A stretch of DNA of 43,757 nucleotides from Escherichia phage vB_EcoS_FP, in sequence record MT682706.1; one strand, given 5' to 3'. Each line of letters begins with the position of its first letter. Within the stretch, counting starts at the first letter, position 1. Of this stretch, positions 20,646 to 42,930 are shown piece after piece. A program made the translations under genes and the position numbers. Under the pieces are notes generated by a model, which searched no databases, was not told where the DNA came from, and was given only the letters and a program-made list of their open reading frames with translations.

Positions 20646-20692
20646 AGTGTAGAATGTTACAAATGATCAAAACAAACATGAGGCTTTGTGAT

Positions 20693-23600
20693 ATGGCTGA
20701 AGATATTAAGATTTATGGTGCTAAGGGTGGTAGTCAGAAGCCGCATCAACCGGTGGAGCAGGAAGATAACCTCATTTCACTAAACAAGGTTAAGGTGTTG
20801 CTTGCTGTCGCTGACGGAGAGGTTGATTCAAACTTCTCAATGAAGGATTTATACCTTGCTGACGTTCCGGTGCAAAACCAGGATGGTAGCTACAACTACG
20901 AAGGTGTTCGCGCTGAGTTCCGCTCTGGTACGCAGTATCAGGATTACATCGCTGGGCTTGACGGTGCTAACTCAGAGATTCAGGCTTCCAGAGAAATCAC
21001 GAACGATACCCCATACATCATTGCGGTTAACAATACTCAGCTATCAGCGATTCGTGTAAAGCTATATTGGCCTAGACTGGTTAAGCAAGAAAGCAATGGA
21101 GACCTGAACGGAACAACCTGCGAATATGCAATTGATCTTTCTGTTAATGGTGGCGCTTATCAGGAATATACTCGAGGAGTTGCTAACGGGAAGACAACTA
21201 CAGGTTACGACCGCAGCATTCGTGTAAACCTTCCAGCTGAATTTGATAGCGCATTGGTTCGCATCCGTAAGATTACAGCAGATTCGACGAGTAGCACATT
21301 GGTTAACGGGATGCAGATTACAACCTATCAGGAGGTAATCGACGCTAAATTCCGCTATCCGCTTACAGCTCTTGTTTACGTTGAGTTTGGCTCTGACCTT
21401 TTTCCTAACGGTATCCCGACAATATCTATCAAGAAGCGATGGAAGTTGATTCAGGTTCCTACAAACTACGACCCTGAAACAAGAACTTACAGTGGCACAT
21501 GGAATGGTCTATTTAAAATGGCATGGTCAAATAACCCTGCATGGGTTCTTTATGACTTAGTGACAAACCGCCGCTACGGTCTTGATCAGAGAGAGCTGGG
21601 TGTAGAGATTGATAAGTGGGGTCTGTACGAAGCTGCGCAATTCTGTGACCAAATGGTTCCAGATGGAAAAGGCGGCATGGAGCCGCGCTACCTGTGCGAT
21701 ATGGTTGTGCAGAATAAAGTTGAGGCTTACACGCTAATTCGTGATATCTGTTCGATCTTCCGTGGCCTGACTTTCTATGATGGCGAAAAGATTGGTATCG
21801 TAGTTGATAAGCCTCGTAATCCATCTTACATCTTCACGAATGATAACGTTGTAAACGGATTGTTCAGCCGCACCTTTGCCAGTGATAAAAGCCTTTACAC
21901 CACGGCAAACGTTCAGTTTGATGATGTTGAGAACAACTATCAGCAGGATGTTGAACCAGTATTCGAATTAGAGGCAACTCGTCGTTTTGGATTTAACCCT
22001 GTAGATTTAACTGCGATTGGATGTACTCGCAGAAGTGAAGCAAACAGACGTGGCAGATGGCTCCTGAAAACCAACCTAAGAAGCGAAACTATTAGCTTCA
22101 CCACTGGGTTGGAGGGCATGATTCCGATGATTGGCGAGGTGATTGCGGTCAATGACGCGGCATGGTCTAGCAACTATCAGCTAAACCTTTCCGGTCGTAT
22201 TGAATCAGTTCAGGGGTTGCAGGTTTTCACCCCATTTAAAGTTGACGCAGCGCCTGGTGACAGAATTCTCCTGAACAAGCCTGACGGAAGTCCAGAAGCG
22301 AGAACTATTGCAAGCGTATCTGATGATGGTAGAACAATAAACCTTAACACTGCGTTCAGCTTTGTAGCCCAGCCTGATACTGTATTCGCAATTGATAAGG
22401 ATAACCTCGCGCTTCAACAATATGTTGTGACAGGGATTCAAAAAGCAGATTCTGACGGTTCGGATTCATTCCAGTACACAATTACTGCTGTAGAGTATGA
22501 CCCGAACAAGTATGACGAGATTGACTACGGCGTTAACATTACTGACCGTCCTACTTCAATTGTGGAACCTGACAGATTGTCTCCACCTGATAACTTAACA
22601 GTATCAAGCTACAGCAAGGTTGTTCAGGGTTTATCGGTTGAGACGATGGTAATTGGTTGGGATAAAGCGCCATACGCTAAAACATACAATGTTCAGTGGA
22701 GGAAAGAGAATGGCAACTGGATTAACGTACCAAGAACAGCTAGTACAGAGGTTGATATCGAAGGTATTTACGCAGGAATCTATGACGTTAGGGTTCGCAG
22801 CGTATCAGATACTGAAAACGTGTCTGCCTGGTCTGACATTGTAACGGTATCACTAACTGGCAAGATTGGCCGCCCATCTGCGCCTACTGCTATCACGGCA
22901 TCAACTGATGAAGTATTTGGTATTCGTGTTAAATGGGGATTCCCTGATGGATCCGGTGATACTGCTTACACTGAACTTCAGCAGGTTCCTGATAATGGCG
23001 ATGGTACTTACAATCCTGATAACGCAAGTTTGCTTACGCTGCTGCCTTATCCAGCCTATGAATACTGGCATACTCCAATTCAGCCAGGTAAGGTTATCTG
23101 GTATCGCGCAAGATTGATTGACAGAATAGGTAATACGTCTGATTGGTCTAGTTTCGCAAGAGGCATGAGTACTGACGACGCAAACATTATCAATGATTAC
23201 ATCAAGGTTGATATTGAAGGCTCGGAAGGATTCAAATACCTCGAGCAGAATGCGATTCAAAAGAATCAGGACATTCAGAACCAGGCAGAATCAATCCTTG
23301 AGAACGCATTAGCTAATGACACTGATGTTCGTCGCATGACTAAGGAGAACGGCAAGCGTAAGGCTGAATATGTTCAGGCAGTGAATCTCATAGCTGATGA
23401 AACTCAGGCGCGCGTAGAGGCTCTCACAGCCCTTAAAGCACAGATAGATGATGAAGTTGTAGCGTCGATTACAGAAGTTCAGACTGCATTAGCCACAGAG
23501 ACAGAAGCAAGAACTACTGCAGACACGGCTCTATCAGCAAGACTTGGAGAAAACGAGGCAGCTCTAAACCAGAAGTTAGACGCATTCTCTAATGCCACAT

Positions 23601-24064
23601 CAACTGGCGTGCAATACGGAATTAGTCTTGGCCTGAAATACAATGGTCAGACTTATTCATCCGGCATGAGCATGGAGCTAGTTGGCACTGGTGGTAATGT
23701 TCGTAGTCAATTCATTTTTGACGCAAACAGATTCGCGATCAGTAACGGCATTGGTTCTGGCTCCGGTCAGTGGCAGCTCCCCTTCGTTGTCGAGAACGGA
23801 AACGTAATCATCCGAAGTGCGGTAATTGGTGATGGCTCAATTACTAACGCGAAGATTGGTGACTTTATTCAGTCCAGCAACTACGTAGCAGGAAGCACGG
23901 GGTGGAGGATTGATAAGTCTGGTAACGCTGAGATTCGCGGTAAACTGTACGCCAACAGTGGTGAGTTCGCATTCAACGGAATAAATAATACGGTACAGAT
24001 TAACGGAAACGGAATCACGGTTAACTTACCTGGAGGGGGAAGAGTTGTGGTAGGTACGTTCTAA
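20693..24064 (+). CDS. central tail fibre / host specificity protein (lambda J-like)
   Basis: About 1123 aa from ATG 20693; position after M-L-K-I; size and domain layout. Confidence 0.85.
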   Translation: MAEDIKIYGAKGGSQKPHQPVEQEDNLISLNKVKVLLAVADGEVDSNFSMKDLYLADVPVQNQDGSYNYEGVRAEFRSGTQYQDYIAGLDGANSEIQASREITNDTPYIIAVNNTQLSAIRVKLYWPRLVKQESNGDLNGTTCEYAIDLSVNGGAYQEYTRGVANGKTTTGYDRSIRVNLPAEFDSALVRIRKITADSTSSTLVNGMQITTYQEVIDAKFRYPLTALVYVEFGSDLFPNGIPTISIKKRWKLIQVPTNYDPETRTYSGTWNGLFKMAWSNNPAWVLYDLVTNRRYGLDQRELGVEIDKWGLYEAAQFCDQMVPDGKGGMEPRYLCDMVVQNKVEAYTLIRDICSIFRGLTFYDGEKIGIVVDKPRNPSYIFTNDNVVNGLFSRTFASDKSLYTTANVQFDDVENNYQQDVEPVFELEATRRFGFNPVDLTAIGCTRRSEANRRGRWLLKTNLRSETISFTTGLEGMIPMIGEVIAVNDAAWSSNYQLNLSGRIESVQGLQVFTPFKVDAAPGDRILLNKPDGSPEARTIASVSDDGRTINLNTAFSFVAQPDTVFAIDKDNLALQQYVVTGIQKADSDGSDSFQYTITAVEYDPNKYDEIDYGVNITDRPTSIVEPDRLSPPDNLTVSSYSKVVQGLSVETMVIGWDKAPYAKTYNVQWRKENGNWINVPRTASTEVDIEGIYAGIYDVRVRSVSDTENVSAWSDIVTVSLTGKIGRPSAPTAITASTDEVFGIRVKWGFPDGSGDTAYTELQQVPDNGDGTYNPDNASLLTLLPYPAYEYWHTPIQPGKVIWYRARLIDRIGNTSDWSSFARGMSTDDANIINDYIKVDIEGSEGFKYLEQNAIQKNQDIQNQAESILENALANDTDVRRMTKENGKRKAEYVQAVNLIADETQARVEALTALKAQIDDEVVASITEVQTALATETEARTTADTALSARLGENEAALNQKLDAFSNATSTGVQYGISLGLKYNGQTYSSGMSMELVGTGGNVRSQFIFDANRFAISNGIGSGSGQWQLPFVVENGNVIIRSAVIGDGSITNAKIGDFIQSSNYVAGSTGWRIDKSGNAEIRGKLYANSGEFAFNGINNTVQINGNGITVNLPGGGRVVVGTF

Positions 24065-24067
24065 AAC

Positions 24068-24092
24068 AAAAGCCCCGAAAGGGGCTTTATAT
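24068..24092. terminator. bidirectional intrinsic terminator
   Basis: AAAGCCCCGAAAGGGGCTTT between convergent genes. Confidence 0.7.
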
Positions 24093-25028
24093 TTAATACA
24101 TATCAGGAAGGTAAGGAAGTGGCATTGATATTGTTACGTCAGGCCTATTTCCTATCTCGTATCTAACAATCCTTGATCCCGTGCCAGATCTAACATACCC
24201 ATTGCTCATTACGATTCCTTTGTTTCTCAACTCCTTATATGCTCGTATTGCCCTTGTGTTAAACCCACATCTGAGTATTGGGAAGTAAGATTCGCCAATG
24301 TACTGATTGCTACCTGATAGGTTTATGAATCCAGAAACAACCAATGGCCTAGTTACGGTCGACAGCGTACAAACACCATTTGAATTAAATATGTTTAATC
24401 CAGGACCTGGCGTTGGTGCTACCATCTGAAATATAAGAAGGTCCATAGTTACACTTCCTGGAGTGTCACCAGTATCTTCCGTATTTATGTTTGTGCATAC
24501 CAGCTGGTTACTACCATTGTATTCAACTGATACGCCGGAGTTGTTCCACTTTCCAAACGGTATACCATAAATTGGCAGTGTGTATGTGTTGGTGAAAGAT
24601 ATTCTCTGAGCAAACTTGCATACTAATAGCCTGTCAGTGGTGGTTATAGAAGTAAAGTCAGTACTGTCAGTAACGTAAATACCCTGGCCTGTAGATGCTC
24701 TTAGTACCTCAACAACAGTACCAGAAAATTGAGTTATACGGTCAGAATATCCATTCTCATAACCAATCGATATTGTTCCGCTTGATGCTGTTGATGAGAA
24801 TCCATTTATGTAGTAAATCTCAACACCTCTATCAAGCTCAAATGAGTATGCGCCATTGTTAGGTATAAGGAACCTTGACGCTCCTTCATTACCCTGAATT
24901 GAAAAATTTTTGCTAAATCCACCACTGGAGACGTTGAAGTTACCAGCGAAGTTTAAAGCACGCATCCCTGCGGTTATTGTCATTGGCTTTCTTCCGTCAT
25001 TGAGGTCTATATAAATACCTTGAGTCAT
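24093..25028 (-). CDS. putative receptor-binding protein (311 aa)
   Basis: Minus-strand gene convergent with J; start ATG overlaps lipoprotein stop (TAATG) with AAGGAG RBS; Ser/Thr/Gly/Asn-rich. Confidence 0.5.
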   Translation of the reverse strand: MTQGIYIDLNDGRKPMTITAGMRALNFAGNFNVSSGGFSKNFSIQGNEGASRFLIPNNGAYSFELDRGVEIYYINGFSSTASSGTISIGYENGYSDRITQFSGTVVEVLRASTGQGIYVTDSTDFTSITTTDRLLVCKFAQRISFTNTYTLPIYGIPFGKWNNSGVSVEYNGSNQLVCTNINTEDTGDTPGSVTMDLLIFQMVAPTPGPGLNIFNSNGVCTLSTVTRPLVVSGFINLSGSNQYIGESYFPILRCGFNTRAIRAYKELRNKGIVMSNGYVRSGTGSRIVRYEIGNRPDVTISMPLPYLPDMY

Positions 25029-25258
25029 TAATTCCACTCCTTAGAACCATAATCACGAACAGATCCGCTGGAGCCTTTAATACCATCGTAGCGAATGTCA
25101 ATTTCACCAGCCGAAACTACTACGCCACCTTTCCATTTAGCTACGCACACGCCGTTTGAGGACGCTGCACACCAACCATCCGGGCGGGGAGCTGATGAAC
25201 AACCAACCGTCATGATTACTGCCGCTGCGATGATTGGTAATTTGATTAAGTTAGTCAT
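25028..25258 (-). CDS. lipoprotein, candidate superinfection-exclusion (Llp/Cor-like)
   Basis: Signal peptide plus lipobox MTVGCSS; 76 aa; adjacent to putative receptor-binding protein gene; driven by phage promoter module. Confidence 0.6.
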
Positions 25259-25282
25259 TTTTAAATCCTTAGTAAGTGCGTT

Positions 25283-25344
25283 TCGTTTCGATGAACTAAT
25301 AATACAACCGTCGGTGCGGAATGTCTTTAGCTATTCGTGCTATT
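25283..25344 (-). promoter_or_regulatory. phage-specific promoter-like module driving lipoprotein/RBP operon
   Basis: Minus strand: AATAGCACGAATAGCTAAAG ... TATTATTAGTTCATCGAAACGAAACG. Confidence 0.5.
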
Positions 25345-25720
25345 GTATACGCGTAACCAATGTAACTCGATGTATACAATCTCATCCGCGAAAAATGATA
25401 TACGCGCTGTTACGGCAATTTACGCATTGGTTACATTAAAATATCTATATATATCAACCTTTTACTCTTATTATTATTATTATATATATTACTGTGTATA
25501 TCATGTAACTACTTCTATAGAGTGTTCCGGTTATAATTTTAATATCATGTGGATTTATACAGTATTGCGTGGCAGCTATACCAATGCACCCCCTGCAAGA
25601 AACGGTATACACGATATACACGATGGTTACATTGAGCTATAGCTGGGCTGAGATGCCAAAAAGCGTAACTAGTACCAATACCTACACGGAATTACAGTAA
25701 TTCGCACGTAAACTTAATAA
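25345..25720. repeat. AT-rich non-coding control region B (homologous to region A); (TTA)n microsatellite; TACGCNNTGGTTACAT iteron-like sites
   Basis: No ORF with coding signal; shared blocks with 247-540. Confidence 0.7.
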
Positions 25721-25721
25721 A

Positions 25722-26000
25722 TTGATAGGCAAAAACGATATGACTTATCACCTGCCAATGCATATGATTACCTCATCGAAAGCAAGCAACCAGAGAGACA
25801 CAGAAATGACCTACTACATTATCAAAGAGAAAAACAACGCACTATTCGGCGACTGCTACTTTGGTGGTCCCGCTGGATACACAACGAATAAGAACGAGGC
25901 AGACCGATTCGAGACTAAAGAAGAAGCCAGAGATGTACTGACCGGTTACTTCACTGAGGAAGATTTGAAATCGGTTAAGATTGTTAAGGTTAAGGATTGA
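25722..26000 (+). CDS. hypothetical protein (start uncertain)
   Basis: ORF track. Confidence 0.45.
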   Translation: MIGKNDMTYHLPMHMITSSKASNQRDTEMTYYIIKEKNNALFGDCYFGGPAGYTTNKNEADRFETKEEARDVLTGYFTEEDLKSVKIVKVKD

Positions 26001-26224
26001 TTAAGATGAAAACATGTGAAGAGAATTTTATATCACTAAATGATTTTATTGGTGATGATTTTGACTATTCTGATGTAATTGTTACATGGACTGCTGGAGG
26101 AGACGTTTTTTCAGATATGCTGATTTATAGTACAGACTATAGCAACTATCATTGGGAAGAAGACGAAGAATACGAAGAGGCTAGACTTTATTATTCTGAA
26201 ATCATTAACGTTAAGAGCGTTTAA
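25997..26224 (+). CDS. highly acidic small protein (75 aa)
   Basis: ATGA overlap; D/E-rich (EEDEEYEE); immediately upstream of exonuclease. Confidence 0.5.
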   Translation: MIKMKTCEENFISLNDFIGDDFDYSDVIVTWTAGGDVFSDMLIYSTDYSNYHWEEDEEYEEARLYYSEIINVKSV

Positions 26225-26228
26225 GAAA

Positions 26229-27212
26229 ATGACATTTACCGTATACACACGAGAAGAGCTATCAAACTCGGAGTACCACGCTGAAACTGACCACATCTCA
26301 GGTAGCTCACTTGTCGAGATTATTCAGGGTTCACCAGCTAAGTGGAAGTTCAAGCAGCGCAATAATGACAGCAGGGCGCTTAAGTTTGGCACGCTGAGTC
26401 ACACTTACATCCTGGAAGGTGACATGTTTGATAAAAAATACCTGCGAGCAACAGACCTTGATGCAATTGAAGGCTTAATTACAAGCCAGGCTGGATTAGC
26501 AGCAGCTCTGAAAAAAGTTGGTGTAGCTGGCACGTCAGGGAAGGGGTATAGCGAGCTAGTAGAGATGATGTATCGCTCTGGCGAGGATTGGGATGTTAAA
26601 TGGTTAATTGAGCAGCAGGAGAGCGCACAGGCTCTTATAGAGGGTAAGGAGCTAGTTAGCGCAGAAGACTACGACAAAGTGGTGGCGATGCGCGAGGTTC
26701 TTTGCAATATTCCGGCTTACAATGCGATCATTAATAGCGAGACAGCACAAAAAGAGCTATCAATATTCGGCGAGATTCTAGGTGATGAAGATAATCCCGG
26801 TGTCGGCGTTAAGATTCGAATCGACCATGTTGATGTTGTTGATGGTGTTGTTTATATCACAGATTACAAGACGACAGCAGACGCAAGCCCTGAAGGATTC
26901 GGTAAGTCAGCATTCAAACATGGATACCTTGCAAAAATGGCTCTTCAGCGCGATCTGTTTGTGAAGGCATTCAACGAGAAGAGAAAGGTTGTTGTGAGAT
27001 TGCTAGCCCAGGAGAAGGTGGAGCCATACCTACCAATGTCTTACACGCTAACAGATGAGCAGCTTCGCATTGGACGACTACAATACCTTGAAGCACTTGC
27101 CACTTACAAAAAGTGCAAGGAACTAGATATCTGGCCTGGCTACTCGAATGGCATTACAGAGCAAGAGCTATTAGTTCCTGAGTGGGCTATTAAACAGTAT
27201 AAGGAAATCTAA
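26229..27212 (+). CDS. PD-(D/E)xK family exonuclease (YqaJ/lambda Exo-like)
   Basis: Block IRIDHVD...VYITDYKTT resembles the D..(D/E)xK nuclease core; position upstream of ERF and SSB. Confidence 0.55.
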   Translation: MTFTVYTREELSNSEYHAETDHISGSSLVEIIQGSPAKWKFKQRNNDSRALKFGTLSHTYILEGDMFDKKYLRATDLDAIEGLITSQAGLAAALKKVGVAGTSGKGYSELVEMMYRSGEDWDVKWLIEQQESAQALIEGKELVSAEDYDKVVAMREVLCNIPAYNAIINSETAQKELSIFGEILGDEDNPGVGVKIRIDHVDVVDGVVYITDYKTTADASPEGFGKSAFKHGYLAKMALQRDLFVKAFNEKRKVVVRLLAQEKVEPYLPMSYTLTDEQLRIGRLQYLEALATYKKCKELDIWPGYSNGITEQELLVPEWAIKQYKEI

Positions 27213-27260
27213 ATAGCACTTTTTGTTAAAACGAAATGTATGTTTCTCGCTATATTTGAA
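27212..27260 (+). promoter_or_regulatory. phage-specific promoter-like module (variant)
   Basis: AATAGCACTTTTTGTTAAAA, 22 nt, TATATTTG. Confidence 0.45.
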
Positions 27261-27787: not shown

Positions 27788-27840
27788 AAATAGCACGAAT
27801 TGCTAAAGCAATGTGGGATAGCTGATGTATAGTTACCCCA
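27788..27840 (+). promoter_or_regulatory. phage-specific promoter-like module
   Basis: AATAGCACGAATTGCTAAAG, 22 nt, TATAGTTACCCCATCAACAACGAACGAGG. Confidence 0.55.
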
Positions 27841-27862
27841 TCAACAACGAACGAGGTTAAAG

Positions 27863-28513
27863 ATGCAAATTTCAGAATCATGCAAGTCAATTTTAAACGC
27901 GCTACACACTGCTAAATCGCTATTTGCGAAGGCTGAAAAATCTAAGCAGAACTATCACTTAAAGAATAAGTACGCAACCTTAGAAGACGTATTGGCGGCC
28001 GTTGAGCCTGGTTTAGATGAGTGTGGTTTGGTTATGTTCCAGAGTGTGCTTGATGACGAACATTCGAATCGCATGAAGGTTGAGACAAAGCTGTTCCATG
28101 CGGAGTCAGGCGAATGGGTTAGCTTCTTAATGATTGTACCAATCAGCAAGAATGATGCTCAAGGTTACGGCTCAGCTTTAACATACGCTCGACGATACGG
28201 AATCACAGCGGCACTAGGTCTTAGCCAGGCAGATGATGATGGCAATCTGGCAGCGAAAGGCGTAAAAGACTTTAAACGAGAGCTTGAGAAATGTAACGCA
28301 TTGGATGAGCTTCGTAACGTATGGAAAGAGGCAAAACAATCACTTGATGCGGCAGGATGGAAGGTTTTTGAACCACACATTATTGAGCGCAAGGCAGAAA
28401 TCGAAGCTAATGCAATGACTGGCTTTAACCCAGCCACACCTAAGAAAGTTGCAGAAAAAAGTAGTGATAAAGAAAAGAATGAAGTAGAATCACAACAAAT
28501 CGACACGTTCTAA
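27863..28513 (+). CDS. erf: ERF-family single-strand annealing protein
   Basis: ERF-like block YATLEDVLAAVEPGL...ALTYARRYGITAALGL; position next to SSB. Confidence 0.7.
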   Translation: MQISESCKSILNALHTAKSLFAKAEKSKQNYHLKNKYATLEDVLAAVEPGLDECGLVMFQSVLDDEHSNRMKVETKLFHAESGEWVSFLMIVPISKNDAQGYGSALTYARRYGITAALGLSQADDDGNLAAKGVKDFKRELEKCNALDELRNVWKEAKQSLDAAGWKVFEPHIIERKAEIEANAMTGFNPATPKKVAEKSSDKEKNEVESQQIDTF

Positions 28514-28555
28514 ATTAATTGGGGCTTCGGCCCCAACAAGCACAGAGAGATAAAA

Positions 28556-28972
28556 ATGCACGTAATTACTGGTCAGATTCGCCGCGCTCCATTCACTAAA
28601 GAAGGTCAAAACGCTAACGGTAACTGGAAAATGTTCGCGGTTGATTTGAGTGAGAGATACAAGGATAAAGATGGGCAAGCTCAGTACACCAACTACCGCG
28701 CTGTGCTTTTCGCTAAAGAGTCTATGCTGGATTGGTATAACGAAGCATTTCAGGAGGGTAAGGTTGTTAGCTTAAGTTCCGAGAGCTTGTCGGTTGATGT
28801 TCGAGATAAAGATGGAAAGACCTACGTAACAGTCAATATGAACAATCCACGACTTGAGTTTAGTCAGCGTGGTGACTCACAGCCGCAGCAAAATCAGCAA
28901 CCACAGCAGCAGCATCGACAGCCCCAGCAGCCACAGCATCAAAGTCAATTCAACGATGATATCCCCTTCTGA
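28556..28972 (+). CDS. ssb: single-stranded DNA-binding protein
   Basis: OB-fold-sized N-terminus, Q/P-rich linker, acidic C-terminal tail DDIPF. Confidence 0.75.
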   Translation: MHVITGQIRRAPFTKEGQNANGNWKMFAVDLSERYKDKDGQAQYTNYRAVLFAKESMLDWYNEAFQEGKVVSLSSESLSVDVRDKDGKTYVTVNMNNPRLEFSQRGDSQPQQNQQPQQQHRQPQQPQHQSQFNDDIPF

Positions 28973-28980
28973 TAAAAGAT

Positions 28981-29005
28981 AAAGCCCCTTTCGGGGCTTT
29001 TTTAT
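28981..29005. terminator. bidirectional intrinsic terminator
   Basis: AAAGCCCCTTTCGGGGCTTTTTTAT between convergent ssb and tailspike. Confidence 0.75.
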
Positions 29006-29008
29006 TTA

Positions 29009-31525
29009 TTAAACATAGCTGTTTACAAAAGTAATTTTTCCTCCAGGTCTTTTATATGAGTAGGAGTAGTTCTTATTCTCAGGAAGAATAATATTAGGTG
29101 AACTATAAGACAAGGAAAGAAAAGGAGCATCAAACAGGTATTCGTTTTCCGTCATTATTGCGTATGTTGAACTTAGTGAGCTATTGAATCTAACAGATGA
29201 ACCAATTAAAAACCTTGTAGATGAGCCAATCAATCTTATTGCCGATAACTCATCAGTTCTTGGATTAACACCCCACTCATCAATAGTGCAGCAATCAACT
29301 GATCCACTAGAGTTTCTTAGTCTAAAGGCGTGCCCATTAATACCATTTATAACACCACTAGAAAAAGCAATTGAATTACAGTTGTAAGCATCAAGAAAAA
29401 CATCAGTTCTTGATGTTGGTGTTGAGTACGAGCCCTTACCTAAAGCGTCGAAGCTACTACATACAATCCTATCCGCATTTACAGCTTTTATGCAAACCAT
29501 GTTTGACTCAATAGTTGTCATTGAGTGAACAAAGTGAGCGTTTGAAATTTGAACACCAGAAACCCTCCTTGTGTCATTTCCAGATATTAGAAGTATTGGA
29601 ACTGACGAATTTGATGTATTTGTTGTTTCACCGATGTATATGTTTGACATGGCTGTGTTTATATGATTAGTTTCATCATCTTGCGGCTCAATAGCTATAG
29701 CTCCGACATCCATACCCCCATTGCAAAACAAATTGTTTACCCTGTTACCTCCAGCGGAAAGTCTAAGAGGTACAGATCCGCCATAAATTTCGACCGTATC
29801 AATAACACTATCAGAGTAAACCCTAATTCCACCACCCGAAGCGAATTTTGCAGGGTCTGATATATCCGTTGCATTACAGTAAATTCTCTCAAATCTTGAT
29901 AGCCCCTGACCTGAATATATAAACCAAGTATTGAATCGATTCCCTGATAAATCCCTATACTCCCATCCACCTCCAGATTCATGAAGTATAGCGTGCTGAC
30001 AAGACCATTCACCATCAAATGAAATTCCCTCAAACTTAACTGCGTCTACTCCACTAAGTCCTTTATTTGATGTGAATATTGATCTTTGATTTGGTGTGGC
30101 TGGTTTAATTATCGTCGACCCTAAATAAGCCTGATTCCCACCCTTTCCAAGAAATTTAACCCCAGAAGCTACTTGGTTTAGCTCGATCTCCGATGTTCTT
30201 ATCACTCCAGCAGGAAACTCCAAAACCTTAACCCCTGCGTAAATGGCTTTAATTATTGCATCCTTGTTATCAGCAACATGTACTCCGCCACCGTAAGATT
30301 CAATCTTTGATGATATTGGCCTTAGCTTCCATTTTTCATCTAATTCTGGAGATGATGGAAGCACCGAGCCTTCAGTTATCTGCCCATCATATGAGTATTG
30401 ATTACCATTGTAATTAAATGACTGATAGTTTGATGTCAGCTTCTTACCTTGCGTGAAATCCCCAGATGAAAAGTACCCATTAATCTTATTAATAGCAGCA
30501 TCAACATCTTGCTTCGAGTAAACATCAAGATTAGTTCTTGCTAATGACTTATTTGCAACATCAGAGAGATTCAATGACTTTTGAAAAGTCTCATTTTTTG
30601 AGTAAACATCAAGCAAACCCCTAACCCTTATAGCAGAAGAGCCACCAGCAGCAGCATCTCCACCTGGAACGCTTAGAAGCTCCCTTACATAAAAACTCCT
30701 AGAACCAGTAGCTCCAGTAAAGGTAATTTCCGCAACCCTAAAAACTGCGTTTGAGGCTGTAGAAGGAGAAACTCTTACTACGTTACTTCCATTAATACCG
30801 CGCGTCGCAAGAACATCAATACAAATAGTAGTGTTTGTCGCCGGGAACATTGAGCTTAAGTCTGCTGGAATGTTAACCATGTTGTCAATTCTGCACTGGT
30901 AACTACCACCTGAATAAAATTGCATTGTCTGCCAGTCAAGTGATCCTAGCAGTGGTGTTGTAGTACTTCCTATGCCGTGTTCTGCAAAGTAAGCCACTGC
31001 TGCGGTATTCCCAGCTGCATTTATTGCAGCAACGGTTCTTTTGTATGAGTTCTGTGCATTATTGCTGGCGCCAACGGCAGTTGATGCGCTTTCTGCGGCA
31101 GCAACCTGACTAGCAAGAGCCTCCGCAGCTCCAGTAGTGGATTGATTTGCAAGTTTCTCGAAGCGAGGCCAGTCGAAAGTGTCTTGACCAATAAATTGCA
31201 GCAATCCTTCGATGGATGTCTCCTTGGACTGGTAGTAACGCAAAGTCTCTGCTACATCCTGAGCCAACCCCTGAACGGTAATTCCATCGTGCGCAAGAAT
31301 TGCATAACCAGTTCCTGCAGGAACAGTTTCAGAATTAGGGTTGTAAACATTAATCTGCGTGTCGCTAATGATTTCAGAGATGGTGTAAATCTTTAGCGGG
31401 TTAGTTTTGAAAATGATAGTTGCACCTACGCGAATCAGTGTAAGCGGTGCTTTCCATGTTGTCCCCACGCCAGTTACCTCGCCAGTTGCGGCCAGCGACG
31501 CTGTTCCTAAGTCATAAATTGCCAT
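29009..31525 (-). CDS. tailspike / lateral tail fibre (beta-helix, candidate polysaccharide depolymerase)
   Basis: About 838 aa from ATG 31525 (RBS GGAGAC); conserved-looking N-terminal anchor, Ala-rich coiled segment, long Ser/Gly/Asn/Thr-rich repeat-like region. Confidence 0.65.
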   Translation of the reverse strand: MAIYDLGTASLAATGEVTGVGTTWKAPLTLIRVGATIIFKTNPLKIYTISEIISDTQINVYNPNSETVPAGTGYAILAHDGITVQGLAQDVAETLRYYQSKETSIEGLLQFIGQDTFDWPRFEKLANQSTTGAAEALASQVAAAESASTAVGASNNAQNSYKRTVAAINAAGNTAAVAYFAEHGIGSTTTPLLGSLDWQTMQFYSGGSYQCRIDNMVNIPADLSSMFPATNTTICIDVLATRGINGSNVVRVSPSTASNAVFRVAEITFTGATGSRSFYVRELLSVPGGDAAAGGSSAIRVRGLLDVYSKNETFQKSLNLSDVANKSLARTNLDVYSKQDVDAAINKINGYFSSGDFTQGKKLTSNYQSFNYNGNQYSYDGQITEGSVLPSSPELDEKWKLRPISSKIESYGGGVHVADNKDAIIKAIYAGVKVLEFPAGVIRTSEIELNQVASGVKFLGKGGNQAYLGSTIIKPATPNQRSIFTSNKGLSGVDAVKFEGISFDGEWSCQHAILHESGGGWEYRDLSGNRFNTWFIYSGQGLSRFERIYCNATDISDPAKFASGGGIRVYSDSVIDTVEIYGGSVPLRLSAGGNRVNNLFCNGGMDVGAIAIEPQDDETNHINTAMSNIYIGETTNTSNSSVPILLISGNDTRRVSGVQISNAHFVHSMTTIESNMVCIKAVNADRIVCSSFDALGKGSYSTPTSRTDVFLDAYNCNSIAFSSGVINGINGHAFRLRNSSGSVDCCTIDEWGVNPRTDELSAIRLIGSSTRFLIGSSVRFNSSLSSTYAIMTENEYLFDAPFLSLSYSSPNIILPENKNYSYSYKRPGGKITFVNSYV

Positions 31526-31591
31526 TGTGTAAAGTCTCCATTTGTAAAATAGCACTAATTGCTAAGTTGGATTGTAGCATCTTTCAGGCAT

Positions 31592-31612
31592 AAAAAAACC
31601 TCCCAAAGGAGG
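31592..31612 (-). terminator. intrinsic terminator (minus strand) after primase
   Basis: Minus strand: AACCTCCTTTGGGAGGTTTTTTT. Confidence 0.65.
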
Positions 31613-32539
31613 TTAGTCTAGTAATTCGCTTGCTTTGTATATTCGCTTTCTTATGCCTGACTTGAAAAAATTATCATCATTTGGCATTACCACATCAAGA
31701 TTGCGATCGTCAGCAACAGCGAGTAAATCAAAATCGTGGCGAGTACAAGCGACGCGTAACTTGTAGTTTCTAAGCGCATAAGCAACCATTTCCATGTTGT
31801 AACTGGAGTGGCAAACAAGTACGCAGCGGTTGCCAGTAGCAATATGAACGCGAACACCATCAATCCAATTATCGACCAGATAAGCGTACTCATCATCTTT
31901 AAAGGCACCAATAACAGCAATAGACTGGCGAGTGTAATCTTTTGCAGCATAACTAACATCTCCATCTTCATTGATAAACATTACATTGCACATTTCTTCC
32001 GATATGCCGTCACTATAAGCCATAAAACACGGTATTGCGTGTATTATTTCGCCTGATTTTGTTCTGCCAACATCAAAGCCAAACTCGCTATAGATACCCT
32101 CGTATGTACTGAGCGGAGTTGATTCTACTCTTTCCGTCCTTTCCATTATCTCTAAGCATCTTTCGTGGTCAATCTGGGAGCCCATTTTATAAGGGGATGT
32201 ACGTGAGGCCCTCTTATTTGCTTTAGCTACAACCTCAATAGGAACTAAGTTTAGCCAGTCACCAAGCGTATCTATTGTTTCACTATAACTCATTCCAGAA
32301 CACTTCATTACCCAACCTACACCAGAATCATTTCCACATTGGTTGCATATTGCTGCGCCATTTCCCTTTTCTTGACCTAACTCATCAGTGAATCGAAACC
32401 TATCCTTGCCAAAGCAGTAAGGGCACGGACCGTGCTTCTTGCTGAGATTCTCCTTTGTCCATCCAAGATGCGATGAGTAGAACTCACTCCACATCCCTTT
32501 CATCTTGGATATCACTTCGTTCTTATCATGGTGACTCAT
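31613..32539 (-). CDS. DNA primase-like protein (zinc ribbon CPYC...CNQC)
   Basis: Start at ATG 32539 (RBS GGAGGT); N-terminal C4 zinc-binding motif; position near helicase. Confidence 0.5.
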   Translation of the reverse strand: MSHHDKNEVISKMKGMWSEFYSSHLGWTKENLSKKHGPCPYCFGKDRFRFTDELGQEKGNGAAICNQCGNDSGVGWVMKCSGMSYSETIDTLGDWLNLVPIEVVAKANKRASRTSPYKMGSQIDHERCLEIMERTERVESTPLSTYEGIYSEFGFDVGRTKSGEIIHAIPCFMAYSDGISEEMCNVMFINEDGDVSYAAKDYTRQSIAVIGAFKDDEYAYLVDNWIDGVRVHIATGNRCVLVCHSSYNMEMVAYALRNYKLRVACTRHDFDLLAVADDRNLDVVMPNDDNFFKSGIRKRIYKASELLD

Positions 32540-32559
32540 AATTACCTCCATAAACAATA

Positions 32560-32612
32560 AAGGCACTATACATAATGCACAGTGCCATTGTTTATCAATT
32601 CGTGCTATTTCC
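32560..32612 (-). promoter_or_regulatory. phage-specific promoter-like module (minus strand)
   Basis: Minus strand: AAATAGCACGAATTGATAAA, 22 nt, TATAGTGCC. Confidence 0.5.
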
Positions 32613-33087
32613 CTTGCTCTTTAGCTTTTCGTGCTGCCTCGTTAGCGGCCTTAATCTTGCGCCATGATCGACACTCTGGCTTCGTGGCTAACTCAGCCTC
32701 AGTGACCACACGCAGCATGTGACGTTTTTTGCAACGTAGTGTAAGTGGCTTTCCGTTGCCATCGAATTGCAAATCTGGTCGGCAGAATGTAGCGCGAAAG
32801 CCTTCTCCATTTCGTTTGTAGTAGTTGTGCGACAACTGAGCACCGCGTGCAGAAATCATACCACGCTTAAACCATTCTTCCACGGCCTGTGGTGTTACCT
32901 TTAATTTCTTTGCCATATTTGCCTTTGTGCCGAAGAAATCAAGAACAATTTCCAGCCGCGCACGTAAACCCGCCCTTACCTCATCTTTCAAAACGTAGTA
33001 ACCTGAAGGTCGTTTTCGCTGCTTTTTATCTTCAGTGCGGATGGTTCCGTTATTGCCGTTAATGGTTCTCTTGTCGACTGTATTCAT
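32605..33087 (-). CDS. HTH DNA-binding protein (Cro/YdaS-like), basic
   Basis: HTH block AKKLKVTPQAVEEWFKRGMISARGA; ATG 33087 with GAGGTAATAAG RBS. Confidence 0.55.
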   Translation of the reverse strand: MNTVDKRTINGNNGTIRTEDKKQRKRPSGYYVLKDEVRAGLRARLEIVLDFFGTKANMAKKLKVTPQAVEEWFKRGMISARGAQLSHNYYKRNGEGFRATFCRPDLQFDGNGKPLTLRCKKRHMLRVVTEAELATKPECRSWRKIKAANEAARKAKEQGK

Positions 33088-33098
33088 CTTATTACCTC

Positions 33099-33146
33099 GA
33101 TAGCATTTTTTGTTAAAAGTCATCCTGATTTGATGGTAATATTGTA
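33099..33146 (+). promoter_or_regulatory. phage-specific promoter-like module (variant) for helicase operon
   Basis: GATAGCATTTTTTGTTAAAAG, 22 nt, TAATATTGTAC; divergent from HTH gene. Confidence 0.45.
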
Positions 33147-33188: not shown

Positions 33189-35183
33189 ATGTTGCCTATC
33201 GAGAAGCTGGTTGCCAACTTTGATAAAGAAAGAATTAAACAGATTCAGAAAGACTATCAGTTTGGAGAGATAACCCCTTACGAATTCCAGTGCGTTACAT
33301 TTGACGCAATTGGGAAGGCTATTGGCAAGTACGAAGCGCCATTTATCGCAGACCTTTCCGTATCGGCTGGTAAGACAATCATTCTCGCTATGATTGGTAA
33401 GCGTATGGAGCAGCTTGGCCTTCCTTATATGGTGCTTTCTCGCCAGTCAGAGATAATCAGCCAGAACTCAGAAGAGCTTCGCAATTTTGGCATCCGTAAT
33501 AGCGTCTATTGCTCCGGGCTTAACGTTAAATCAGTTTATTACCCAACCATAGTTGCCAGTGAGGGCACGGCAGCTAACGGCTTATTTAAGGGGCTTGGTG
33601 ACTATGTTCCGGCTGTTATCGCAATCGATGAATGTCACATGGTCGATCACATGGATATCGTGGAAGCTGAAGAGAACGAAGAAACATTTGAACAAATGAG
33701 CACAAAGAAAGGCGAGATGGTTTTTAAGGATGGCGTTAATACTGGATTGCTTGGTACTGGTCGTGCGCAGTACACGCTAATAATCACTGAGATGAAGCGT
33801 CGCTGCCGTGAAAAATACGGGCGGGAGCTTCGTATATTCGGCCTTACTGGTAGCCCTTATCGAAACAATGATCGTATCGTCGTTAGCAATCCAAATATCC
33901 GTGGGTTCTGGCGAAAAACTGTGATTCAGGTTCCAACAAATTACCTTGTTGATTTGGGATTCGTGGTTCCAACTGTTTACGGCGAGGTTGGTGACCTTGG
34001 TTATGACCTTAGCGAATTTGCGCCTGATGGAAGCGATGGGGTTAAGGATTTTAGCAAAAAAGAAATGGATGCAATGGCTGCAAAGATTCACGACAACCAA
34101 TCCATGACTCAAAAGATAATGGGTTTTGTTGTAAAAATACTAGAGACCCGCAACGCAGCATTGGTTACTTGTGCTGGTAAGCTCCATTGTGATGAGGCCG
34201 CTGCGGCACTGCCAGATAGATACCCTTACGCTATCATTACTGATTCTACGGGGGAGAAGAAGCGCAGGGAGATTCTTGCTGATTGCCAGACAGGGAAGTA
34301 CAAAATCATATTCCAGATTGGTTGTCTAACCACGGGCGTGTCGGTTCCACCGTGGGATACAAGCGTGATACTTAGAAAGATCGGCAGCCTTACACTAATG
34401 ATCCAGTTGCTTGGTCGGGGTATGCGAATTCTAAAGAAAAAGCATATAGAAATGGGGATGAAAAAAGATGATCACCTTGTTCTGGACTTCGCTGGCGCAC
34501 TTGATGACATGGCAGAGCTTTACTTTGACCCAATAATTGAGGAGCTTCAGGCTGAGAAGTTTAAATCCTCAAGAAAAGGTGGTGATGAGGTTCGCCAGTG
34601 TCCGCAATGTGGATATGAGAACTCGCCATTTGCTAGACGCTGTAGCAATAAGATTGATGGTGTTAGATGCGATCACTTTTTCCAGTTCACAACATGTGAT
34701 GATATTACCGACCAACAAACAAAGGCGGTAATCAAGAAAGGTTGTGGAACTAAAAATGACATAGCAGCAAAAGTTTGTCGTGAATGCGGAGAAATTCTTA
34801 AAGACCCAAACGCTAACCTGACTGGAAAGATGTATCGTCGCGGAGACTATTTGCGAGTTTATGATTTTCAAGTTGGTTTAAGCAAGAATCAAACGGGCAT
34901 TGTAGTTAAGTACAATATCATGGCCCACAACGGAGAAAGATTTAACGCTTGGGAGTTCTTCAATCCAGAATCTGACCATAGGGTTTGTAGTGTGCTTTGG
35001 AAAAACTTTTGCCTTGCTCACATTGAAAATCGCGCTGAAGCAGCACGAATTGGCAGACTGAAGAATGCCAGAATGATTATGACTAACGCAGATAAGTTTC
35101 GTGCGCCAGTCCAGGTGACACACCGCAAGAATGGCAAAGGAAAGGATATAATAGCTTTTAAGAATTTTGGAGAATTGTTATGA
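33189..35183 (+). CDS. SF2 DEAD/DExH-family helicase with C-terminal zinc-ribbon motifs
   Basis: Walker A SAGKT, motif II DECH, CPQCG...C..C zinc-binding motifs. Confidence 0.85.
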   Translation: MLPIEKLVANFDKERIKQIQKDYQFGEITPYEFQCVTFDAIGKAIGKYEAPFIADLSVSAGKTIILAMIGKRMEQLGLPYMVLSRQSEIISQNSEELRNFGIRNSVYCSGLNVKSVYYPTIVASEGTAANGLFKGLGDYVPAVIAIDECHMVDHMDIVEAEENEETFEQMSTKKGEMVFKDGVNTGLLGTGRAQYTLIITEMKRRCREKYGRELRIFGLTGSPYRNNDRIVVSNPNIRGFWRKTVIQVPTNYLVDLGFVVPTVYGEVGDLGYDLSEFAPDGSDGVKDFSKKEMDAMAAKIHDNQSMTQKIMGFVVKILETRNAALVTCAGKLHCDEAAAALPDRYPYAIITDSTGEKKRREILADCQTGKYKIIFQIGCLTTGVSVPPWDTSVILRKIGSLTLMIQLLGRGMRILKKKHIEMGMKKDDHLVLDFAGALDDMAELYFDPIIEELQAEKFKSSRKGGDEVRQCPQCGYENSPFARRCSNKIDGVRCDHFFQFTTCDDITDQQTKAVIKKGCGTKNDIAAKVCRECGEILKDPNANLTGKMYRRGDYLRVYDFQVGLSKNQTGIVVKYNIMAHNGERFNAWEFFNPESDHRVCSVLWKNFCLAHIENRAEAARIGRLKNARMIMTNADKFRAPVQVTHRKNGKGKDIIAFKNFGELL

Positions 35184-35599
35184 ACATTACAGACAAAGTT
35201 GATTACATTGAGTTTTACTCTGGACCGGTTAAGTCGTGTCCGAAAGAGGATGACGAACAAATCTTTTGCTCTGATTGGGTTAAGTATAACTACCCAGATA
35301 TGGTATTTTTCCACTGCGTGAATGAGGGAAAGAAAACCATTGGTCAAGCAAGAAAGGACCAGGCTAAAGGTTTGCTTAAAGGGGTTTCTGACTGCTTATT
35401 CCTGATACCTGAATCTCTGCGTGGCAAATACCCTTTCGGAGCCATAGAGCTAAAGAGAGCAGGAAAAACCCAGGCAAGTCCAGTCAGCAATGAACAGAAG
35501 TCCTTCCTGAAAAGCGTGAGAGAATCAGGGGGTTTCGCTGCCGTGGCTTACGGACGAGAAGGTTTTCTTGCAGCATTCAAAGAAATGATTTCAAAATAG
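35180..35599 (+). CDS. VRR-NUC domain nuclease
   Basis: 139 aa; AIELKRAGKTQAS...Q.KS block; ATGA overlap with helicase. Confidence 0.6.
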   Translation: MNITDKVDYIEFYSGPVKSCPKEDDEQIFCSDWVKYNYPDMVFFHCVNEGKKTIGQARKDQAKGLLKGVSDCLFLIPESLRGKYPFGAIELKRAGKTQASPVSNEQKSFLKSVRESGGFAAVAYGREGFLAAFKEMISK

Positions 35600-35645
35600 C
35601 ACGAATTGCTAAAGAGATTTCGCAGGGATGCGATATAGTTACTCC
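35595..35645 (+). promoter_or_regulatory. phage-specific promoter-like module
   Basis: AATAGCACGAATTGCTAAAG, 22 nt, TATAGTTACTCCATCGAAACGAAACG. Confidence 0.55.
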
Positions 35646-36469: not shown

Positions 36470-36721
36470 ATGTTGGGTTTAGATTTTCAGCCAGAGCATT
36501 ACGATTTAGTATATGGGCAAAGTGGAGCTAAGTTTAGGGCGATACCTATTGCTGACTGGTTCCCTCCTGATTATGCGGATGTGAATGCAAAAACTAAAGA
36601 CGGTAAGTGGGTACAGATTTACTACTCTCCAGCATGCGGAAACCTTTGCATGACTGACCTTGACCAGAAGTTAACAATTAGTGCTGATTTGATTGACTGC
36701 TGGTTAAAAGAAGTTGAATGA
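36470..36721 (+). CDS. hypothetical protein (83 aa)
   Basis: ORF track. Confidence 0.5.
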   Translation: MLGLDFQPEHYDLVYGQSGAKFRAIPIADWFPPDYADVNAKTKDGKWVQIYYSPACGNLCMTDLDQKLTISADLIDCWLKEVE

Positions 36722-38482: not shown

Positions 38483-39039
38483 AAATGACTAAATTATTTA
38501 TCCTTAACGGACCGGCTGGAGTTGGCAAGGACACTATCGCAGATGTTATGCTCGAGTTGGGTGTTGTTGATGGGAAAGTTTCATTCAAGTCACCAATGTT
38601 CGATGTAGCCAGGGGGATGCTATCAAAGGATGAATTTGATTGGTTTATTGAGAACTACAACAACCGAGACGAGAAAGAAAAGCATCAAGAGATACTTGGC
38701 GGTAAAAGCATTCGAGAATTTATGATTTGGATTAGCGAGTCTGTAATGAAGCCAGTCTTTGGTGATTATGTTTTCGGTAAAAGGCTAGCCCAGTCACTTG
38801 GTGATGGTTGCTACATTTGCGCTGACGGTGGGTTTGCTAGCGAGATTAAGCCACTGATCGACACTGGTGTTGAGGTCACGTTAATCAGATTGCATAGGGC
38901 AGGGTACAAATTTGATGGCGATAGTCGCTCATACATTCATGGGGTGTGCGCAAGAGAAATTGATGTTCGTGTTGTTGATGGTGATATTGATGGAACATCA
39001 GCATTGGTAAGGCACGTAATAAATAGCACGAATTGCTAA
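38479..39039 (+). CDS. P-loop kinase (dNMP kinase-like)
   Basis: Walker A GPAGVGKDT; ATG 38479 with ACGGAG RBS; runs through a promoter motif, ending NSTNC. Confidence 0.6.
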   Translation: MKMTKLFILNGPAGVGKDTIADVMLELGVVDGKVSFKSPMFDVARGMLSKDEFDWFIENYNNRDEKEKHQEILGGKSIREFMIWISESVMKPVFGDYVFGKRLAQSLGDGCYICADGGFASEIKPLIDTGVEVTLIRLHRAGYKFDGDSRSYIHGVCAREIDVRVVDGDIDGTSALVRHVINSTNC

Positions 39040-42449: not shown

Positions 42450-42496
42450 ATTATATCAACGACCGCTTATAATTCATTATCAATTTGTGCTATTTA
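42450..42496 (-). promoter_or_regulatory. phage-specific promoter-like module (minus strand) for ATPase gene
   Basis: Minus strand: AAATAGCACAAATTGATAA, 22 nt, TATAAT, with the -10 overlapping the first in-frame ATG at 42451. Confidence 0.5.
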
Positions 42497-42869: not shown

Positions 42870-42930
42870 GTTTCGATGAGATTAATATACATGAAAAGCC
42901 CCGAAGGGCTTTAGCAATTCGTGCTATTGC
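42870..42930 (-). promoter_or_regulatory. phage-specific promoter-like module (minus strand) containing a terminator-like hairpin in its spacer
   Basis: Minus strand: AATAGCACGAATTGCTAAAGCCCTTCGGGGCTTTTCATG-TATATTAATCTCATCGAAACGAAAC. Confidence 0.55.

Follow-up and report, generated by a model that had tools for sequence, protein, structure and literature searches.

We examined a minus-strand gene of Escherichia phage vB_EcoS_FP (FP; sequence record MT682706.1) that encodes a protein of 838 amino acids (aa); the window referred to below is the whole 43,757-nucleotide stretch of this record. FP was announced as a siphovirus obtained from Spanish poultry beds, with a genome of 43,757 bp and a 44.1% G+C content (MT682706), in the context of a study of phages infecting porcine enterotoxigenic Escherichia coli (ETEC) (PMC7471389). 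In a megablast comparison, the window's right half shows 88–90% identity over 77–83% of its length to the T1-like phages BEK6 and Msk and to those of the vB_EcoS-2862 group; BEK6 is classified in the Drexlerviridae (Braunvirinae). The genome is already public and the gene arrangement is textbook for the family; the protein is best described as a T1-type anchor carrying an orphan receptor-binding module of the TSP4 type, and no new kind of system is revealed.

The open reading frame (ORF) extends from 29009 to 31555 on the minus strand and gives 848 aa if read from a GTG codon. This start was rejected: it has no ribosome-binding site (RBS), and homologues begin with MAIY or MALY. The in-frame ATG at 31525 is the better start because GGAG lies 10 nt upstream of it (31539–31536) and because homologues begin at the same residue (MAIYDLG in FP and MALYREG in Depo32, the K2 capsule depolymerase of Klebsiella webervirus GH-K3). 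The 838-aa product, already proposed in a preliminary description made from the sequence alone, is 100% identical to the deposited "hypothetical protein FP_0046". The features of the locus are collected in Table 1.

Table 1. Features of the FP lateral tail fibre locus and related elements in the window (positions are those of the window)
Feature	Coordinates	Strand	Extent and basis
Lateral tail fibre/tailspike coding sequence	29009–31525	-	838 aa; ORF listing, 100% match to FP_0046, PHROG tail-fibre families
Putative virion-anchor domain (N-terminal), conserved across Drexlerviridae	31196–31525	-	aa 1–110; Depo32 homology, phage matches
Ala-rich long helix, presumed trimeric coiled-coil shaft	30956–31195	-	aa 111–190, 25% Ala
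Beta-sandwich middle domain (predicted), optional in family	30626–30955	-	aa 191–300; pLDDT 72–92 in AF2 model
Junction segment with fibre motif LDVYSK...NLSDVANKSLARTNLDVYSK, anchor/receptor-binding crossover point	30485–30625	-	aa 301–347
Receptor-binding module	29009–30484	-	aa 348–838 and stop; predicted N-terminal subdomain, right-handed parallel beta-helix, and C-terminal strands; candidate residues D572 and E633
Cassette swapped relative to BEK6 (receptor-binding module, 3' untranslated region, terminator)	28975–30512		blastn against BEK6
Bidirectional intrinsic terminator, convergent SSB/fibre junction	28981–29000		hairpin AAAGCCCCTTTCGGGGCTTT; called as terminator on both strands
Terminator-like hairpin upstream of fibre gene	31597–31614	-	AACCTCCTTTGGGAGGTT and T run, directly after primase stop codon
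Putative fibre promoter region	31548–31579	-	extended -10-like TGcTACAAT (31579–31571), 5 nt, palindrome TTAGCAATTAGTGCTATT (31565–31548)
18-nt palindrome, copies 1–7	1703–1720, 2214–2231, 3149–3166, 5317–5334, 25327–25344, 27212–27229, 27789–27806		
18-nt palindrome, copies 8–14	31548–31565, 32592–32609, 35595–35612, 36671–36688, 39022–39039, 42477–42494, 42911–42928		

PHROG assignments place the tape measure gene at 15136–18114 and the J-like central fibre gene at 20654–24064, ending 4.9 kb from the fibre gene. The fibre gene is flanked on one side by genes for exonuclease VIII (26229–27212), Erf (27863–28513), and single-stranded DNA-binding protein (SSB; 28556–28972), and on the other by genes for primase (31613–32566, minus strand), a transcriptional regulator (phrog_2856; 32605–33123, minus strand), and helicase (33189–35183, plus strand). 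This slot, between exonuclease VIII/Erf/SSB and primase/helicase and convergent with SSB, is the position described for the lateral fibre of Drexlerviridae (PMC8594841, Fig. S1C). The preliminary description was accurate in locating the gene 5 kb beyond J, on the minus strand and between recombination and replication genes. It also took the opposite strand and the distance from the tail module as signs of a mobile cassette, and this part is not supported. In T1 (NC_005833), the order is exonuclease VIII (ST29), Erf (ST28), ST27, rho-independent terminators, tail fibre (ST26, minus strand), ST25, primase (ST24, minus strand), a terminator, regulator (ST23, minus strand), and helicase (ST22, plus strand), and the same order is found in BEK6 and in a metagenomic T1-like contig (L004). 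The opposite strand and the distance from the tail module are therefore the ancestral architecture and not evidence of a mobile cassette. What FP carries is the usual side tail-spike gene of T1-like phages, at a locus that is used by the whole family and is variable except at its 5' end (PMC8594841).

PHROG profiles split the protein at aa 347/348: aa 1–348 match the tail-fibre family phrog_24092 (E 1.6e-128), and aa 347–836 match phrog_34776 (E 3e-164), which comprises Kuttervirus proteins named "haemolysin-type calcium binding". This legacy label is unsupported, as no RTX nonapeptide repeats (Pfam HemolysinCabind) are detectable and there is no Pfam match of any kind. The N-terminal 331–340 aa are 93% identical to BEK6 and 86% identical to JeanPiccard, as expected of a Drexlerviridae anchor. 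In a PDB sequence search with the whole protein, matches were confined to the N-terminal 163 aa and to Depo32 chains (7vyv, 7vz3, and 7lzj; E 1e-33 for aa 1–163). The protein is matched by 906 phage records; among the matches listed, the top rows outside the Ackermannviridae share only the N-terminal part. An AlphaFold2 (AF2) model of aa 1–350 is weak (predicted local distance difference test [pLDDT] 62), with a small beta domain (aa 1–77) in a low-confidence, beta-rich anchor region, a long helix (aa 119–181), a beta-sandwich (approximately aa 190–290, where the pLDDT is higher), and short helices (aa 298–349). The beta-sandwich is left unassigned because a Foldseek search with this model gave no significant match (best E 0.09).

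The receptor-binding module (aa 348–838) is rich in Ser (13%), Gly (10%), Ile (9%), and Asn (8%). An AF2 model of aa 341–838, built with 32 homologues, is nearly all-beta and of good quality (pLDDT 87, predicted template modelling score [pTM] 0.85), which supports assignment of the module to the right-handed parallel beta-helix tailspikes at the level of prediction. The preliminary description had proposed an N-terminal anchor, an Ala-rich linker, and a repetitive beta-helix body, naming the absence of a predicted beta-helix as grounds for abandoning the idea; homology to the Depo32 N-terminus, the Ala content of the linker, the composition of the body, and the predicted fold agree with each element of this proposal. 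A profile made from the receptor-binding alignment was also searched against solved structures, and its matches were confined to foreign anchor domains carried by other rows; at the sequence level, the module thus has no solved relative.

In an alignment of FP with 56 relatives (25–70% identity), D572 is present in 57 of 57 sequences, E633 in 56 (the remaining sequence has D), and E579 in 54; S571, G592-G593, N602, and T619/N623/T624 are further conserved positions nearby. Such a pattern would be expected of a glycosidase or lyase whose active site spans neighbouring rungs, and we count it as moderate evidence that the module may be an enzyme.

The two halves of the gene appear to have different histories. 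By blastn, FP and BEK6 are 91% identical over 30513–32266 and 84% identical over 27820–28974, with nothing between; identity returns at 28974, just past the SSB stop codon. At the protein level they share ...NLSDV..K..ARTNLDVYSK up to aa 340 and are unrelated beyond it. The C-terminal 490 aa of FP are likewise unrelated to those of T1 ST26 and the JeanPiccard (Bas02) lateral tail fiber, whereas these two genes and that for the BEK6 "tail fibers protein" (QGH76881) occupy the same slot on the same strand, with the same flanking genes and junction terminator. Detectable DNA similarity to T1 is limited to 226 bp (window 31409–31634, 66% identity) that cover the primase end, the intergenic region, and the first ~40 fibre codons. 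Among the best 119 database homologues, 114 share the N-terminal part only and five share the C-terminal module; homology ends at aa 310–359 in 104 of the 114, and the C-termini found on these N-terminal homologues include Pectate_lyase_3, Beta_helix, Peptidase_S74 chaperone, and PF27114. The G+C content is 38.4% in the receptor-binding region, the lowest among 1.5-kb windows of the genome (0.24% of windows are as low), compared with 44.8% in the first 1 kb of the gene. Across 27859–30567, FP shares 91% identity with L004, a T1-like phage from a metagenome. A second joint is seen in two metagenomic relatives (P0004 and P0006), which keep aa 1–143 and 314–838 (94% and 70% identity over aa 314–838, respectively): aa 144–313 of FP, including the 190–290 domain, have no alignable counterpart in these proteins, where ~45 residues replace 170.

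These comparisons bear on two suggestions of the preliminary description. Its proposed comparison of N- and C-terminal conservation across relatives gives a conserved N-terminus and an exchanged C-terminus. Its exchanged host-range cassette stands for the 3' 1.5 kb (28975–30512) and fails for the 5' part of the gene, which is BEK6-like with a genome-typical G+C content. Judged by sequence comparison, horizontal exchange of the C-terminal part is supported, and only 28975–30512 would be foreign.

The module is 51–52% identical to the C-terminal half of Kuttervirus TSP4 from EP75 (gp169), PhiSH19, SenALZ1, SJ3, ST-W77, moki, and SPTD1, with FP aa 348–836 aligning to TSP4 residues ~519–1010. TSP4, annotated as a "haemolysin-type calcium binding protein", has the same predicted beta-helix tailspike fold. 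It differs in its gp10-like XD1–XD3 attachment domains, which are absent in FP, where the N-terminus is a T1-type anchor; moreover, the identity between the two is below the 75% threshold for a receptor-binding subtype (PMC8432352). At 53–54% identity (aa 348–837), the module is joined to three other anchors: the P22 head-binding domain (Head_binding, PF09008) in E. coli prophages (P0121; context Arc, Mnt, Ant, and gp16, beside bioA); Tail_spike_N (PF18668) in 44-kb siphoviruses ~89–91% identical to Kagunavirus K1H, Bas71, and Bas72 (Kagunavirus-like tailspikes, P0128); and a T7 tail-fibre N-terminus (T7_tail) with Tail_spike_N (P0124). The P22-like prophage and Kagunavirus-like tailspikes thus carry the same module on different anchors and different virion types. 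The module is also present in Citrobacter freundii (P0141). With 66 relatives at E≤1e-3 in a set of 1.84 billion cluster representatives, this is a small family, and a T1-type anchor with the FP module in one protein was found in none of 50,697 GenBank phage records. The plan of the FP protein is that of the Klebsiella webervirus depolymerases (Depo32 of GH-K3, PDB 7VZ3/7VYV; DpK2; depoKP36), which belong to the same phage family, are trimeric and enzymatically validated, and consist of an anchor, helix bundle, connector, and beta-helix; their N-terminal anchor and helical region are homologous to those of FP.

The hairpin at the convergent SSB/fibre junction folds with -17.9 kcal/mol on the plus strand (z -4.7 relative to shuffled sequence) and -15.3 kcal/mol on the minus strand (z -3.6), where the T tail (ATCTTTTATC) is the weaker one; the bidirectional terminator noted in the preliminary description is thereby confirmed computationally. 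GC-rich hairpins flanked by A/T runs are found at the same junction in T1, BEK6, and L004, and the depositors of the T1 record annotated terminators in both orientations at the ST27/ST26 junction. As far as these sequences indicate, the junction terminator is a conserved feature of the family and not one brought in by the fibre gene alone. At the other end of the gene, the terminator-like hairpin after the primase stop codon (-12.3 kcal/mol, z -3.9) is kept in BEK6, L004, and T1; in the T1 stem, both arms have changed in a paired manner (CCGCC/GGCGG). The arrangement of the putative promoter region is also the same in T1, BEK6, and L004 (in T1: TGaTAAAAT, 6 nt, and the same palindrome). A consensus scan found no sigma-70 -35/-10 promoter for the fibre gene, and the extended -10-like element was seen by eye only. 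Preceded by a terminator and a promoter-like element and followed by the bidirectional terminator, the fibre gene appears to form its own monocistronic transcription unit.

We read this gene as encoding the lateral tail fibre or tailspike of a T1-like siphovirus with a module-swapped receptor-binding part, and assign this reading a probability of roughly 0.85. The N-terminal ~110 residues would dock the protein on the tail, where it would presumably be present as a side fibre of the virion; the Ala-rich helix, the beta-sandwich domain, and the short conserved junction motif would form a shaft, probably trimeric by analogy with Depo32 and other tailspikes; and the beta-helix of the C-terminal ~490 residues would bind, and probably cleave, a host surface polysaccharide, most likely O-antigen. 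Contact with the polysaccharide would let the phage adsorb reversibly in a primary step and pass through the glycan layer, after which the J-protein tail tip would engage an outer-membrane protein and make binding irreversible. The accepted model for Drexlerviridae has the same two steps, with lateral fibres binding O-antigen reversibly before the tail tip binds an outer-membrane protein (PMC8594841; PMC13164509), and the O-antigen or capsule specificity suggested in the preliminary description agrees with the role accepted for this locus. Host range would shift when recombination exchanges all sequence 3' of the ...ARTNLDVYSK junction, the incoming FP module being drawn from the small family also carried on Kuttervirus TSP4, P22-like, Kagunavirus-like, and T7-type anchors.

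Several points weigh against this reading. The BASEL authors state that O-antigen binding by lateral fibres in Drexlerviridae "has never been directly demonstrated" (PMC8594841). TSP4 of EP75, the closest characterised relative of the module, produced neither a halo nor inhibition on any of the strains tested (PMC8217332), and TSP4 of SPTD1 is dispensable for the known hosts, its authors raising possible non-functionality (PMC9965104); no member of the receptor-binding family has a demonstrated enzymatic activity or receptor. The N-terminal model is poor, the anchor has no solved structure because it is invisible in the Depo32 map, and the trimer is assumed, the model being a monomer. Pfam and NCBIfam scans of the whole protein returned no family (0 Pfam at E≤1), and Beta_helix (PF13229) and Pect-lyase_RHGA_epim (PF12708) had no match above the gathering threshold; a relative that is 28–33% identical (P0147) does match PF12708.

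Some of these points favour a fibre that binds only, in which the beta-helix recognises a glycan without depolymerase activity or has decayed and is retained chiefly for its structural role: EP75 TSP4 did not produce a halo on any strain, the SPTD1 authors consider a non-functional C-terminus possible, and no glycosidase or lyase family is recognised by sequence. The halo assays may, however, simply have lacked the right host, and a dead domain is hard to square with a module found on five virion platforms. Moreover, down to 25% identity D572 is invariant and E633 nearly so, together with S571, E579, G592-G593, and N602, and one reading of the conservation of D572 and E633 is selection on a catalytic site. 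We consider loss or lack of activity unlikely on balance, while taking it seriously. A target other than O-antigen, such as capsule or another exopolysaccharide (K antigen, colanic acid, or enterobacterial common antigen), is similarly improbable without being far-fetched: related modules occur on platforms that are classically O-antigen-directed (P22-like prophages and Kuttervirus TSPs) and O-antigen is the target in the model accepted for E. coli Drexlerviridae, neither of which is decisive. Far less credible, to the point of being very improbable, is the interpretation of the preliminary description that the whole gene and its terminator arrived recently, as one self-contained host-range cassette, between the recombination and replication modules. 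An orientation opposite to the left-hand neighbours, a hairpin terminator at each end, and the unusually low G+C content of the 3' half are in its favour, but it is contradicted by synteny, the order and orientation being the same in T1 (Tunavirinae), BEK6 (Braunvirinae), and metagenomic relatives; the first 1 kb of the gene and its upstream region are BEK6-like in sequence and genome-typical in G+C; and the adjoining primase and regulator genes lie on the same strand.

With respect to the target of the module, a host-prediction table based on TSP subtypes has no entry for its subtype, and a serogroup-prediction paper covers neither this subtype nor Drexlerviridae. A related module is present in one of 5,426 complete E. 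coli genomes, that of NCTC8623, where it is 99.5% identical to the P0121 prophage gene and has 68% DNA identity to FP over a 384-bp core. P22-like prophages with the module lie beside ybhB-bioA-bioB (E. coli GCA_040785665.1, contig L006, 4001–5929; NZ_LR134234.1, 1615190–1616679). NCTC8623 is listed as an enteropathogenic E. coli of serotype O125:H2 (PMC5704137), and the tailspike of a prophage usually fits the O-antigen of its lysogen, a logic used in PMC10408124. O125 is only a hypothesis as a receptor lead, coming from one strain and a module 54% identical to that of FP. More broadly, we suggest tentatively, and with well under even confidence, that the only tailspike of FP is a member of the orphan receptor-binding family of TSP4, the target of which was missed by two studies, and that FP could de-orphan this TSP4-type family because it has a known ETEC isolation host. 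The presence of the module in the NCTC8623 prophage and in Citrobacter suggests that the family may target E. coli or Citrobacter O-antigens absent from the earlier panels of Salmonella and Shiga toxin-producing E. coli. Separately, and equally tentatively, the family-wide 18-nt palindrome in the putative promoter region may control the fibre gene in the inverse sense.

There are 14 copies of this near-palindrome (AATAGCACGAATTGCTAA) in the window, against 0.27 expected, and 20 in T1 (L003), against 0.21 expected. Approximately 12 of the copies in the window point towards a downstream gene and are followed, after exactly 21 nt, by a -10-like hexamer (mostly TATAGT, TATAAT, or TATATT; weaker at 5317 and 25327) and then usually by a conserved leader of approximately CATCGAAACGA, an RBS, and ATG. 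This spacing would centre the palindrome near -42, as in an activator-dependent promoter. Copies are absent inside the structural module (5.3–25.3 kb), and the copy at the fibre gene is an exception in that it lies just downstream of the -10-like box, in an operator-like position. Searching the literature for the sequence of this motif gave no relevant hit.

Other observations concern the region after J and the database records. The 20-nt hairpin AAAGCCCCTTTCGGGGCTTT occurs twice in identical form (24069–24088 and 28981–29000; 0 expected by chance), at two convergent junctions: that of J with a minus-strand ORF (24093–25037) and that of SSB with the fibre gene. FP 28972–29001 matches in BEK6 only at the post-J junction. 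The second-lowest G+C stretch of the genome (~38.8%, 24700–26200) lies just downstream of J and covers the same minus-strand ORF, encoding a 314-aa "membrane protein" (phrog_1265), and small ORFs; in small siphoviruses, the post-J position is a variable terminal receptor-binding/Cor-type locus (PMC8594841). GenBank records named "Campylobacter phage" (host C. jejuni) also match FP, five by DNA and 20 by protein; this host is odd for such phages, and the records may represent mislabelled or contaminating phages.

The fibre gene probably sets the E. coli surface polysaccharide type that FP attacks, a point of practical relevance to the proposed use of FP against porcine ETEC. For the engineering of host range in T1-like phages, the clean ...ARTNLDVYSK junction is a ready splice point. 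The locus is also a clear example of one receptor-binding module distributed over five virion platforms and all three tail types, and FP, with its single spike, is a simple phage in which to look for the target of the EP75/SPTD1 TSP4 family.

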